Shown here one piece after another: positions 1,500-59,200 of a DNA stretch of 64,000 bases (the stretch's first letter is position 1; each line of letters opens with the position of its first letter). The position numbers were made by a program, and so were the translations under genes. The notes below the pieces were generated by a model. It was not told where the DNA came from and searched no databases. It worked only from the letters and a program-made list of their open reading frames with translations. The DNA is from Eledone cirrhosa (Eukaryota): assembly GCA_964016885.1 (NCBI GenBank), contig OZ024746.1:73718001-73782000 (forward strand), in the 5' to 3' direction.

Positions 1500-1724
1500 T
1501 ACATGGAACTCCTTTAACCATCTTTTGATCTTATATATTATGTATACTCCAGTCCTACAAACTGTAGAGTGCTTCTTATCCGATATCTGCATTGCTTTAT
1601 TGTACTACAATAAAACTCACCTCCTACATATATATATATATATATATATATATATATACACATATATATACCAGATAGAAAAATGCGTACACCAAAAAAA
1701 AAGTAACATTGTTGGAATACAAAC

Positions 1725-1850
1725 CCCTAAAAATACAGGACAAGAAACCAAAACAAAACTTCAAAAGAACAGGACAAGAAACCAAGACAAAACTTTAAAA
1801 GAATAGGACAAGAAACCAAGATAAAACCTTAAAGAACTGGACAAGAAATA
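1725..1850. repeat. Minisatellite with a unit of about 33 bp, about 4 copies
   Basis: Recurring GGACAAGAAACCAA...AAAAC. Confidence 0.75.
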
Positions 1851-1944
1851 AAAAATTTCACAATAATATTAGTTGCAAAATTTTCATTGGTAAAAAATCG
1901 AGTTCCACATTCATAGGCTCTGGGTTACACATTCAGAGGTCTGA

Positions 1945-3963
1945 ATATATACATATATATATACATATACACACATATATATATATATATACATATATAT
2001 ATACATATACACACATATATATATATACATATATATATACATATACACATATATATATATATATATACATATATCTATATACATATACATATATATATAT
2101 ATACATATATATATATATACATATACATATATATATATATACATATATCTATATATACATACATATATCTATATATACATACATATACATATATGTATAT
2201 ATAGGTATATATATATATGTATATATATGTATATATATATATATATATATATATATATATGTATATATATATATATGTATACATATATATATGTATACAT
2301 ATATATATGTATATATATATATATGTATATATATATATATGTATATATATATATATATGTATATATATATATATATGTATATATATGTATATATATATGT
2401 ATGTATATATATATATGTATGTATATATATATATGTATGTATATATATATATATGTATGTATATATATATATGTATATATATATATGTATATATATATAT
2501 ATATATATATGTATATATATATATGTATATATATATATATATATATGTATATATATATATGTATATATATATATATATGTATGTATATATATATATGTAT
2601 ATATATATATATATGTATATATGTATGTATATATGTATATATATATATATATATATATATGTGTATGTTTATATGTATGTATATGTATGTATATATGTTA
2701 TGTATATATATATATATATATATATATGTATATGTATGTATATATGTATATGTATATGTATATATATATATATATGTATGTATATATATGTATATGTATA
2801 TATATATATATATGTATGTATATATATGTATATGTATGTATATATATGTATATGTATATATATATATGTATGTATATATATATATGTATATATGTATATA
2901 TATATATATGTATATATATATATGTATATGTATATATATATATGTATATATGTATATGTATATATGTATATGTATATATATATATATGTATATATGTATA
3001 TGTATATATATATATGTATATGTATATATGTATATGTATATATATATATGTATATGTATATATATATATGTATATATATATATGTATATGTATATATATA
3101 TATGTATATATATATATGTATATGTATATATATATATGTAGATATATATATATATGTATATATATACATGTATATGTATATATATATATATGTATATATA
3201 TATGTATATATATATATGTATATATATATATATGTATATATATATATGTATATATATATATATATATATACGTATATATATATATATATGTATATATTTA
3301 TATACGTATATATATATATGTATATATATATATATATGTATATATATATATATATATGTATATATATATATATATATATATGTATATATATATATATATG
3401 TATATATATATATATATGTATATATATATATATATGTATATATATATATATATATATGTATATATATATATATATATATGTATATATATATATATATGTA
3501 TATGTATATATATATATATATGTATATATGTATATATATATATGTATATATATATATATGTATATATATATATATATGTATATATATATATGTATATATA
3601 TATACGTATATATATATATACGTATATATATATATATATATATATGTATATATATATGTATATATATATATATATGTATATATATATATATGTATATATA
3701 TATATGTATATATATATACGTATATATATATACGTATATATATATATGTATATATATATATACGTATATATGTATATATATATATACGTGTATATATATA
3801 TATATATGTATATATATATATATATGTATATATATATATATATATGTATATATATATATATATATGTATATATATATATATATATATGTATATATATATA
3901 TATATATATATATGTATATATATATATATGTATATATATATATATGTATATGTATATATATAT
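1945..3963. repeat. Compound (TA)n/(TATG)n microsatellite of about 2 kb
   Basis: Seen directly; source of the long YI-repeat ORFs. Confidence 0.95.
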
Positions 3964-54392: not shown

Positions 54393-55549
54393 CCTTGTCT
54401 GGCTTTCTGGAGAATAGAGGAAAGGTGTTTCCTCAAAAACCAGTATGACTCTAAAAACCGGTTTGTCTGTGTGTTAACATACAGAATAGCTGGCCACTCA
54501 CAATAAAGTGACCAGTGAAAAAACTTGGTACATCTACATATGTATACGTGTGTGTATTCATATACATACTAGTATTTCAGTATACATATATGGATGTACA
54601 TCTTTAACTTAATTGTTTAAGCGTCAGTCATACAAAAGTGAGTTACAAACGAAACGAAGTTTAATTTCGTTTCGTTATTTGTTTTTATATATATATATAT
54701 ATATATATATATATATATATATATATATATATATATATATATATATATATATATATATATCATTGTATGTATGTATACATATATATATATATATATATAT
54801 ATATATATATATATATGAGAGTGCATATGCATGTGTATGTATGTATGTATATATATATATATATATATATCATTGTATCTATGTATATGTGTGTGTGTGT
54901 GTATATATGGGAGTGTAAATTCATATGTATGTATATATGTATATATGTATAGATATATATAAAGAGAGAGAGAGAGAGAGAGAGAGAGAGAGAGAGAGAG
55001 AGAGAGAGAGAGAGAGAGAGAGAGAGAGAGGGGAGAGAAGGAGAGAGAGAGAGGGGAGAGAGAGAGAGAAAGAGGGAGAATGAGGGAGAAAGTATTTGAT
55101 AAGAATATAAAGTTTGGGTGTTATCAAACTAACAATTACAACAGACCTGTTATGTCAATCAAGATAGGATATCATCAACATTTCATACATATTCTTATAA
55201 CTGTTGGAAATTATTGTCGAGATCTGAATAGTGATAGTAATGAGACGGTTTATCGCCCGGCTTTTACATTCGTATATATGTTGCAGGTCTTGTTGTTTTT
55301 GTCGGTGTTTATTGCGTTTTAGTTGTTATCTTTTTCCTGAAAAATTGTTCGTCTTATTTTTTCTTCTAGATATCTAATTCTCTCCCACACTACCTGCGTG
55401 TCGCCATCATTATTCTCTCCCTCTTCCTTTCATCTTCTTATTTAGGCCTTCACCTTGCTCTTCCTCGTTTTCACACTATCTTCATAGCCTTGCTTCTTTT
55501 TTTTCTATTTCCACCTTCTTCTGTCTCTACTCATTTACTACTCTCAACA

Positions 55550-56235
55550 GCAGCACCACCGCCACCACCACCGCCGCCACCATCACCACCACCACCAGCA
55601 CCACCACCATTATCATCATCGACATCATCATCATCATCATCACTAAAACAATGTGTCACCCTCACCACCATCATCATCGACATCATCATCATCACCAACA
55701 CCACCACCACCACTACCACCACCGCCACTATCATCATCATCGACATCATCATCATCATCACTAAAACAATGTGTCACCCTCACCACCATCATCATCGACA
55801 TCATCATCATCACTAAAACAAGTGTCAGCATCACCACCACCACCACCACCGCCACCATCACCACCACCACCACTATCATCATTGACATCATCATCACTAA
55901 AACAATGTGCCACCATCACCACCACCACCACCACCACCACCACCACCACCACCACCACCACCACCACCACCACCACCACCACCACCACCACCACCACCAC
56001 CACCACCACCACCACCACCACCACTACGATCATCATTGACATCATCATCACTAAAACAATGTGCCACCACCACCACCACCACCATTATCATCATTGACAT
56101 CATCATCACTAAAACAATGTGCCACCACCACCACTCACCACCACCACTATCACCACCACCACCACCACCTTCATCGCCACCACCACCACCATCACCACCA
56201 CTATCATCATCGACATCATCATCACTAAAACAACC
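55550..56235. repeat. (CAC)/(CAT)-based minisatellite, about 7 units
   Basis: Spacer ATCACTAAAACAA recurs between trinucleotide runs. Confidence 0.85.
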
Positions 56236-59200
56236 ATCACACACACCATCACACACACACATATATGTTTGTGTGTGTGTGTGTATGTATGTGTATTATG
56301 TGGGTAAATATATATATATATATATATGACTTTGTTAGTTTCAGAAGATCCCGTTAAGGGTGAAAGCAGCGATTCTTTGCTTAAACTTTAATCTGTTATT
56401 TTAATAAATATATATATATATATATATATATATATATATATATATATATATATAACGAAGGGAGTGTGGTAAGGAACCAGGTGGACGATAACTCACCAGA
56501 GTACTCGATACTATCGGTAGTAGAGTGGGTAATAGCAAAAGAGTCAGGACCCCGACGGCTGATCTCCGGTCGTTTCAACAGCTAGTTCAGAACAAGCTGT
56601 CGAGTCGGCCGGAGCTCAGCCGTCGGGGACCTGACTCTTTTCGCATGTGTGTATATATATATATATATGTGCTTGTTTTTTCCTATCTTTGCGTTGCTAT
56701 CCTTCTATGTTTGTTTACTTGTCCCGCTCGCTTTACGCGATTTACTTGTCCCAATAGCTTTATTTAGCTATTGCTCGCACCAACTGGAGGTATATGATTT
56801 TTAAAGCGATGAAATACCAATGAAGGTTGGAAAATCACTGATGAAGGACTATTTTTATCATATGTAACCCATGTGCAACCACGCAGTATTCTTTCTTCTC
56901 ATGTTTTTTTTATATATATATATATATATATACGAGGCTAGCAGAGAGGCTGATGGTGATGAGACGCATATTTACCATCACTTAAACATTGCACATTAGT
57001 ATCTGCTCACTGAAATGACCATAAAACTATGGATTCATATTTGTATACTTTTCAACATACACACACACAGACACAAACACACATACATGCATATTATAAC
57101 AAACATACACCTATATAGGTGTACACTGTATATATATATATATATATCTTTTATTTATATATTTATACTCGGATTTCTTTCCTAGAGTGCTTAAATTATT
57201 TGTGACTAATCCCGGTATTTAAAAAAAAAAAACCGCGATAATATTGCTTTTTGCTGAACTCCTTATTGTAGAGTTTTTTTCGGAATGTTTTTGACTGTTG
57301 TTTCATGTAAACAAACATTCGTCTCATTCTGACGTCACCAGCCCTGTTTTTCCACATGTACGTTTTATTTTCATAATCACGCATGATGGTAAACTAGCCT
57401 GCTTTTAAATTCCCTTTTTGGCATATTAATCAGTGAGAATCTGGCTATCGTGTTGAGCTCTGCTGAGGATCGTATTCCAACCGTGACCATCTCCACTGAA
57501 AGTTTACGTGAAATAGTGTTTTTCAAGACTATACAGAGCATTTGTAGTTGTCCCAAATTGAAGGATGAGTATTTTAAACTTTATTTTATTATGAGTTAAG
57601 GCTCTATTGATTTTTCCCTGGATTTCACTAAATTCTGTTGGATAAATCTATATCCTGATTCTCTTTGAGTTGAGTTTGAATTATTTTTCCCACATCTTAC
57701 GTTAACTATTTTCCCATTTTGATGCTATAGTCACTTATATTATGGAATACTGTTGGCTTCTTGCTACAATACTTTCTATACCTTTCATTTATATATATAT
57801 ATATATATACATATATATATATATATATATATATATATATATATATATATATATATATATATATATATATATATATATATATATATATATATGTATATAT
57901 ATTATATGTATATATATATGTATATATATATATATACACACACATATATATATATATACATATATATATATATATGTGTATATATATATATATATATATA
58001 TATATATATATATATATATATATATATATATATATATATATATATATATATATATATATATATGTACATATATATATATATAATTATTTCACTCTATGTG
58101 CTGTATATATATATATATATATATATATATATATATATATATATATATATATATATATATAACGAAGGAAATGTGGTAAGGAACCAGGTGGACCATAACG
58201 CACCAAAGTACTCAATACTTGAGGTAGTAGAGTGGGTAATAGGAACCAGTAAGACCCCGACAGCTGAGCTCAAGCCGTTTCGACGGCTAATTCTGGACTA
58301 TATATACATATACATACATATATATATATATATATGTATGTGTGTGCATGTTTATGAATTTATTCCTCGCTCTCTATATTTTAAAGTATATATATTTATA
58401 CATGTTTATATATCTACTATTGCTCACCGTGCCAAACAAACACTTCCAAAATTACCTGTCATATTACAGTCTAGTAAAAAAAATGCTATGTCTGCTGAAA
58501 ACTATGTTGTGTGCATCTCTAATTTGCCTACATAACCAGCTAGAAATGTAAATCCAGGAAATTGCTGAATATATTATCATATATTTACCTTATTATATTT
58601 TCCAAGTGTCATTTCGTTACACACACACTCACACACGCACACACACACACACACACACACACACGCGCATATATATATATGTGTGTATATGTGTGTATAT
58701 ATATATATATATATATATATACATACATATACATATATATATATATATATATATATATATATATATATATACACACATATGTATGTGTGTGTGTGCGTGT
58801 GTGTGTATATATATATATATATATATATGTATATGTATGTATATATATATATATATATATATACGAGAGGGAGAGGGGGTAAGGGGTGTGTGGCACGGTA
58901 CGCTATGCACTATGTTCACTCAGGTACCTTCTCACTTAATGAAGAATATGCGTGTGTCTATAAGGCTGTATGGATATATTTATGATATATAAAAATATTT
59001 AAATATATTTATTCGACGCTATATTTTCTATTGAGTTCTGTATCTGATAATGATTTACCAATGCATAATGTATGAATCACAATTACATTACTATATATAT
59101 ATATATACATGTATATATACACAGGTATATAGATATATATGTATGCATATATATATATATATATATACATGCGCAAGTCCCACGACCATTCGTGATTGAA

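Follow-up and report, generated by a model that had tools for sequence, protein, structure and literature searches.

Twin bulged hairpins in repeats inserted at (TA)n tracts

The 64,000-nucleotide (nt) stretch of Eledone cirrhosa DNA analysed here (contig OZ024746.1, positions 73,718,001 to 73,782,000; hereafter the window) harbours repeats inserted into (TA)n tracts that share a short stem, initially annotated as ACTC and GAGTRCT on either side of a spacer. Here, we report that this motif is real and genome-wide, that in every family traced it sits in 3' stubs derived from Penelope-like elements (PLEs) of the Hydra clade, which lack their 5' part and are often arranged head to head in inverted orientation, in keeping with descriptions of PLEs, and that full-length elements carry the hairpin twice, a few bases 3' of the two sites at which inserted copies end (site 1 and site 2). 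The features of the window are as follows, the family letters (A-J) being labels coined in this analysis.

1429-1510, plus strand: type I hammerhead with a long stem II, family D
1546-1573, plus: family D hairpin 1; (TA)n follows the tail, which reaches 1627
8768-8797, minus: G-C type hairpin of family I, absent from the initial annotation
9567-9590, minus: G-C type hairpin of family C, likewise absent from it
20206-20409, plus: family E inverted insertion with a site-1 end and a tail end; hairpin at 20350-20372 with a 1-nt bulge
21255-21410, plus: family A-type copy with a hammerhead at 21312, lacking the hairpin because it ends at site 1
23917-23998, plus: family F tail lacking its 5' part, with the 3' half-hairpin at 23933-23939
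24410-24432, plus: family E-like hairpin with a 1-nt bulge
24652-24680, minus: family G hairpin
25217-25638, plus: family F inverted insertion; hammerheads at 25297 (minus) and 25440 (plus), hairpin at 25551-25578
30322-30590, minus: family A inverted insertion; hairpin 1 at 30383-30405 (minus), site-2 end at 30322; opposite arm with a hammerhead at 30494 (plus) and a site-1 end at 30590
36027-36213, minus: family D inverted insertion; hairpin 1 at 36081-36108 (minus), site-1 end at 36213
39171-39209, plus: family H hairpin 1; the tail reaches 39240, and a related copy runs on into hairpin 2
42258-42284, plus: hairpin 1 of family B, an additional copy
42892-43082, plus: family B inverted insertion between a site-1 end (42892) and a site-2 end (43082), with hairpin 1 at 43011-43037
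43422-43450, plus: hairpin of an older family with a decayed 5' arm (43422-43425), ending in (TC)n
47066-47092, plus: hairpin 1 of family B with one base changed, in an insertion at 46936-47139
56500-56526, minus: hairpin 1 of family B
57147-57789, plus: non-coding unit with hairpin 2 (57167-57191), a hammerhead core (57463) and the decayed 3' half of hairpin 1 (57745-57751), ending at 57789; related copy at locus L373
58207-58233, minus: hairpin 1 of family B

All ten main sites of the initial annotation were found at their positions, and the spacing to the microsatellite junction, given there as 30-80 nt, was measured as 31-80 nt downstream. Besides the hairpins at 8768-8797 and 9567-9590, further copies of family B had escaped that annotation. 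The half motif at 23933 proved to be a 5'-truncated copy of the family found at 25551, in other copies of which a second stem arm comes after this tail, and the copy at 57167-57191 has no TA tract after it because it is a hairpin 2 heading a unit of about 640 nt. The 3' half noted at 43398-43450 does belong to the motif; its 5' arm, to judge from related copies, is the stretch at 43422-43425, and this family was seen as stubs only. Two proposed variants (37878-37913 and 20433-20475) have neither the bulge nor the RCT and are unsupported as members. Palindromic TA-inserted families with other terminal hairpins, without a bulge, lie at 37847-38165, 48021-48144 and 20422-20896.

Enrichment was assessed in a reference sample of 80 stretches of 10 kb (800 kb) from the same genome, four of which adjoin the window and which were not drawn in proportion to contig size. 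A strict pattern including the bulge had 41 matches against 0.2 expected in shuffled sequence; 36 of these sit 20-100 nt ahead of (TA)n and the remaining five belong to the same families. The simple form ACTC..GAGTRCT was followed by (TA)n at 20-100 nt in 43/57 cases and preceded by it in 5, against a baseline of 6.4%. The compensated form GCTC..GAGCRCT behaved likewise (10/11 with (TA)n downstream), in contrast to the mispaired ACTC..GAGCRCT (1/10), to ACTC..GAGT lacking RCT (40/334) and to two scrambled stems (0/11 and 1/6). Relative to the coding strand, the strict motif occurred in 126 sense and 3 antisense matches. An association with the strand of a nearby hammerhead, as first suggested, holds in full-length elements, where the two share a strand, but is weak for stubs: among 73 tail motifs a hammerhead core lay upstream on the same strand in 10 and on the opposite strand only in 7, the latter because inverted arms carry hammerheads of their own. 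The type I hammerheads at 1439, 21312, 25297, 25440 and 30494 have a stem II region of 31-36 nt and a minimal palindromic helix III, and an Rfam scan of the window returned mostly microsatellite noise, two tRNA-like matches and one weak hammerhead.

The core of the original consensus holds, but the motif is wider (RCTC/GAGY-RCT) and includes a 2-nt bulge, the full form RCUC-Y…R-UH-GAGY-RCU being a bulged hairpin with covarying pairs. Pairs were counted in 91 unique instances (116 raw), for which the nearest 5' arm was chosen automatically, with a few mis-assigned. In 82 of them (58 C-G, 23 U-A, 1 G-C) the nucleotide that follows the 5' arm is paired to the one located three positions ahead of the 3' arm, while registers slid along the hairpin paired in 8-25, and 10,000 shuffles, with a mean of 63, never reached 82. 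U is the first base of the bulge in 89/91 instances, and the hairpin spacers range from 6 to 35 nt. Among 33 families below 85% protein identity, out of 44 loci chosen for two exact 4-bp stems, the pair across the bulge of hairpin 1 is C-G in 17, U-A in 16 and mismatched in none, and it has switched at least 6 times on a reverse transcriptase (RT) tree built of loci fetched in this analysis only, without published reference or outgroup. A formal count gave 100% pairing (0/500 shuffles) and was limited to 11 equal-length instances, the variable loops being unalignable with MAFFT.

Hydra-clade parents and the twin arrangement

The carriers had first been regarded as otherwise unrelated, a view that fails for every family traced, since all belong to the Hydra clade of PLEs. 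From the family A stub at 30383, an upstream walk crosses a 2-kb untranslated region (UTR) into an open reading frame (ORF) whose product has a CxCx5C linker, lacks CCHH and carries CxxC and CxH motifs at its end, a combination that fits the definition of the Hydra clade given in PMC8557442. Family B (43011) has an intact parent ORF of 716 amino acids (L342) in 3.53-kb head-to-tail tandems, its protein being 40% identical to that of family A, and family D (1546) also continues into a Hydra ORF, with hairpin 2 present in the parents at L345 and L352. A DNA search with a family D query gave no match though copies exist. The parents of all three families insert into (TA)n and share a single ORF with RT plus, at the C-terminus, a GIY-YIG-like endonuclease, the CxCx5C linker without CCHH, CxxC and CxH near the C-terminus, and DKT instead of DKG. 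The endonuclease was read from motifs; a Pfam search of a partial Hydra-type protein gave no match. The N-terminal RWK motif reads RWR in families A and B and likewise, by eye, in the published Hydra-1_Crog. A canonical hammerhead lies in the pseudo-long terminal repeat (pLTR) of families A and D, and the core in family B looks non-canonical. Near-identical 3.53-kb family B units with intact ORFs stand in head-to-tail arrays at L342 (G000:C1:437199500-437209000), L343 and L344, and by this sequence evidence family B seems to have been active recently without a standard ribozyme.

The elements agree with the Hydra clade as portrayed in PMC8557442 in protein motifs, (TA)n targeting, a pLTR hammerhead (in families A and D) and inverted and tandem insertions, and differ in tails of about 55-110 nt rather than 30-40 and, for families A and B, in exceeding the usual length of less than 3 kb. 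The hairpin is visible by eye in four of the six consensus sequences supplied there (coral, sea cucumber (two) and copepod), and stands twice at the 5' start of Hydra-1_Ajap; it was not seen by eye in Hydra-1_Amil and Hydra-1_Obim, and a conserved hairpin is not described in the text examined. A further Hydra-type family (L201, L204) ends in (TA)n with no tail hairpin in the copies viewed, and its stubs at 19449-20179 and 56328-56407 of the window form a long inverted repeat.

Full-length Hydra-clade PLEs, in whose termini the initial annotation had proposed to look, carry the hairpin twice between hammerhead and ATG. This twin layout was first seen in family A and then looked for in other families. 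Running from pLTR to ORF, a hammerhead is followed by site 1 and hairpin 1 and then, after 35-69 nt, by hairpin 2 and the ATG, with hairpin 2 some 10-60 nt ahead of the ATG in the elements seen. Genome-wide the twin pattern had 1,517 matches against 19 for the control, and 25/30 fetched loci run on into a Hydra ORF. Beyond E. cirrhosa, protein alignment found 78 metagenome loci, some redundant, that were counted as other animals; of 51 ORF starts with at least 150 nt upstream, 34 are preceded by two hairpins, 13 by one and 4 by none. The stem in the window is hairpin 1, retained in the known "tail" of PLEs by copies that end at hairpin 2, and the visible distance from stem to microsatellite varies over 30-80 nt because the uncopied second hairpin sets that end. 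The stem is no 3'-terminal helix, as it sits 3' of the apparent start of copying and occurs twice.

That all traced carriers come from one clade would suit a motif that is merely inherited sequence of related repeats, with no function. Such a reading is exceedingly improbable and contradicted by the covariation, for the hairpin has been retained between families with 40% identical proteins and unalignable flanks, with repeated compensatory changes.

Other identities were tried and rejected. Naiad PLEs have an N-terminal endonuclease and no canonical hammerhead, in contrast to the C-terminal endonuclease of the parents, and the motif was not seen by eye in six published Naiad 3' ends. It was also not seen at the ends examined of the PLEs of this genome that we take, from their motifs, to be Neptune-like and Penelope/Poseidon-like; six strict matches in 48 such loci were five stubs of motif-bearing families and one unrelated palindrome. 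Elements here with GIY-YIG and CCHH or Penelope-type endonucleases lack the motif at their (TA)n ends. At L081-L098, several Neptune-like and Penelope-like families with ORFs of up to 1,096 amino acids have (TA)n or (CA)n ends but no such hairpin next to them, and may use another signal. The stem is not hammerhead helix III, as no GAA stands ahead of the arm and the true hammerhead lies upstream; ACTC/GAGT does occur within helix III of some Hydra ribozymes. Ends of Helitron/Helentron or other HUH-type elements were dropped once RT parents had appeared. A search of four Hydra loci with Rfam 15 covariance models gave no match at E<=0.5 and also missed their hammerheads, hence was insensitive.

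Ends of insertions and inverted arms

Insertions end 2-7 nt 5' of hairpin 1 or hairpin 2. In family A homology ceases 2 nt before hairpin 1 in 51/67 copies and 4 nt before hairpin 2 in 46/62, and 129/129 TA-ended matches stop at the two sites, despite nearby TATA/ATAT patches. The ends of family B lie at -5 (10/10) and -3 (16/18), and those of family D at -4 to -7 and -6 (10/13), before hairpins 1 and 2 respectively; this mapping run covered six of seven parents and undercounted family A, and exact-end values for families C-J, distorted by anchor mismatches, are left out. In the metagenome loci, where 10 of 25 rows reach the contig end, 8 of the 15 informative ends lie 2-6 nt before the hairpin and one more before a variant hairpin. 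The covariation, the strand bias and the fixed distance to element ends together support a conserved structured cis-signal common to PLE-type elements; to this extent the initial suggestion of a conserved signal is borne out, without its 3'-terminal position.

The fixed distances fit a nuclease ruler on DNA equally well. According to this main rival explanation, the hairpin acts in single-stranded or extruded DNA, where complementary DNA (cDNA) begun further 3' is trimmed by the GIY-YIG endonuclease at a fixed distance before being joined to (TA)n. Craig et al. (PMC8557442) attribute the tail to endonuclease-mediated resolution, and Frangieh et al. (PMC11167929) cite earlier work in which the Penelope tail is needed for DNA recognition by the endonuclease. 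We nevertheless regard trimming as unlikely, because spacers of 6-35 nt rule out ordinary duplex recognition, the junctions share A/T bases with the (TA)n tract, as priming predicts, and in the PLE Poseidon the genomic ends coincide with the RT start sites measured in vitro (PMC11167929, text examined).

Both sites are used within single insertions. Out of 87 head-to-head insertions, 54 had both ends classifiable, and these combine site 1 with site 2 in 52 cases, site 2 with itself in 2 (one of them in a family with unverified sites) and site 1 with itself in none; loci not picked by a tail query gave 17/18 for site 1 with site 2. The same pairing is predicted if priming occurs once, at hairpin 2, and the cDNA folds back on itself and stops at hairpin 1 to give the inverted arm, and palindromes at inversion points were interpreted as self-priming in the text examined of PMC3846280. 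Under fold-back the tail arm could not be the shorter of the two, but the tailless arm was longer in 22/30 insertions, shorter in 3 and similar in 5, a bias that later deletions or mis-assembly of palindromes could blur. These arm lengths argue against the fold-back reading of tails and inverted pLTRs (PMC3846280, as far as examined), which we hold to be very unlikely. Cleaved linear monomers can be rejected as the usual template, since only 1/185 family A matches starts at the hammerhead cut site. Chimeric insertions at L121, L349, L370 and L375 join one family's tail to the pLTR end of another family, at or near its own end, which suggests template switching between families.

Other features of the window do not involve the hairpin. 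LINE-like 3' ends of one family, presumably RTE-like, precede (TA)n without the motif at 21687-22113 and 60013-60232. An inverted repeat at 7933-8674 holds tRNA-like copies at 8077-8147 (minus) and 8517-8587 (plus; Rfam 41 bits), probably heads of short interspersed elements (SINEs). A frame of 216 amino acids at 63044-63694 (minus) has a His/Cys-rich stretch followed by what we take to be a restriction-like nuclease signature, and is presumably a fragment of a site-specific non-LTR element. A tandem array of about 8.6 copies of a 144-nt GAT/GGT-rich unit occupies 27427-28678.

A possible signal for double internal priming

As inserted copies end a few bases before either hairpin, the hairpin likely tells the RT where copying starts, and to judge from sequence the twin bulged hairpins are probably a loading or positioning signal on the RNA for internal priming by the RT of the element. 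Beyond the observed layout, covariation, end positions, end pairing and arm lengths, we infer an action of the fold at the level of RNA, where it would bind the RT-endonuclease and set the place of priming, with both sites being used on a single RNA, a view that draws on the Poseidon experiments described below. The RT-endonuclease would cut both strands of a (TA)n tract, both ends of which offer the same primer because (TA)n is self-complementary. A template RNA spanning the pLTR-ORF junction would hold one enzyme at hairpin 1 and one at hairpin 2, each pairing a DNA end with the short A/U patch just 5' of its hairpin and copying towards the 5' end of the RNA. Each hairpin would remain uncopied from its own site, while cDNA begun at hairpin 2 would include hairpin 1 as the tail, and the two cDNAs, joined head to head, would yield an inverted insertion that carries a tail at just one of its sides. 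The full scheme, a programmed double priming in which an RNA with two hairpins of about 25 nt would recruit two RTs, one for either end of a double-strand cut and each starting at a set distance 5' of a signal that stays uncopied, is put forward more tentatively, as a possibility.

The twin hairpins could instead serve ribonucleoprotein assembly or translational control, as an operator for the element's own protein, with ends adjoining them as a by-product of protein position. The location of hairpin 2 so close to the ATG and the conservation of RCU after the stem, like that of a protein-binding site, would accord with such a role. It appears distinctly unlikely, given that a non-coding unit (57147-57789, L373) retains both hairpins and that each hairpin has its own end at a near-constant distance.

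Several observations weigh against the priming interpretation. The outer stem hardly covaries, its closing A-U or G-C pair reflecting a single change on the RT tree; hairpins taken in isolation often show little folding tendency (z -3.0 to +0.15), and for those at 39171 and 43011 the predicted minimum-energy fold differs from the motif. Counts of G-U and A-C pairs (14 vs 9) fail to distinguish RNA from cDNA. For families E (20350/24410) and G (24652) searching gave neither a hairpin 2 nor a parent. Six to seven of the 15 informative ends in other animals lie away from the hairpin (elsewhere or in low-complexity sequence), 33/87 inverted insertions have an unclassifiable end, and the in vitro precedent, Poseidon, is of a different clade whose signal need not resemble that of Hydra.

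In L1 twin priming both ends of the cut target prime; the second site is opportunistic and the arms are not known to overlap, whereas here both sites are fixed and the arms overlap. The 3' stem-loops of LINEs and SINEs, such as eel UnaL2, are common to autonomous and non-autonomous elements and are read by the RT. A LINE stem-loop lies 5' of the start and is copied, in contrast to the signal reported here, which is 3' of the start site and uncopied. Nearer to the present proposal, the purified Poseidon PLE of Anolis carolinensis cuts and extends both strands, has two internal start sites that bracket the tail, requires RNA downstream of them and is predicted to dimerize (Frangieh et al. 2024, PMC11167929, in the text examined). 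The two bracketing starts, the use of both strands, the downstream RNA and the dimer resemble what is proposed here. Poseidon initiates in a stem-loop that is AC-rich and lies inside its ORF, while the sites here lie in the 5' UTR, each beside its own hairpin, and a repeated binding signal is not defined in the text examined of that study. Similarly, in the portions examined of PMC3846280 and PMC8557442, tails and inverted pLTRs are an optional extension on one of two inverted ends, ascribed to self-priming or to resolution by a nuclease; in the elements studied here each end maps to a hairpin.

The unit at 57147-57789 resembles animal non-LTR retrozymes, non-coding hammerhead units thought to be mobilised by PLEs, for which the text examined names no RT cis-signal (PMC7229834; bioRxiv 10.64898/2026.07.22.740005). 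The twin hairpin is a candidate for that signal. The initial annotation knew of no description of the motif, and none of this twin hairpin turned up in the full-text literature searched, where Repbase reports and subscription journals are poorly covered. Earlier publications deal with tails, inverted pLTRs, Hydra elements and two-site initiation; what is added here is a conserved cis-element of a known clade, itself apparently undescribed.

Only one PLE has been reconstituted so far, and the choice of template by PLEs and the reason for the inverted arm and the one-sided tail have been open questions. Programmed double priming, if true, would account for the one-sided tail and the inverted pLTR, for the requirement of tandem or circular templates and for the trans-mobilisation of retrozymes; it would also provide a portable tag with two sites for writing RNA into (TA)n. 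The motif could help to annotate very many unclassified stubs (36 in the 0.8 Mb sampled) and to recognise non-autonomous partners. A small signal found across several animal phyla, each copy tied to an insertion end, is directly testable by experiment, and since PLE RTs are the sister group of telomerase, a putative binding element beside a short pairing patch also has a bearing on the possible origin of telomerase RNA.

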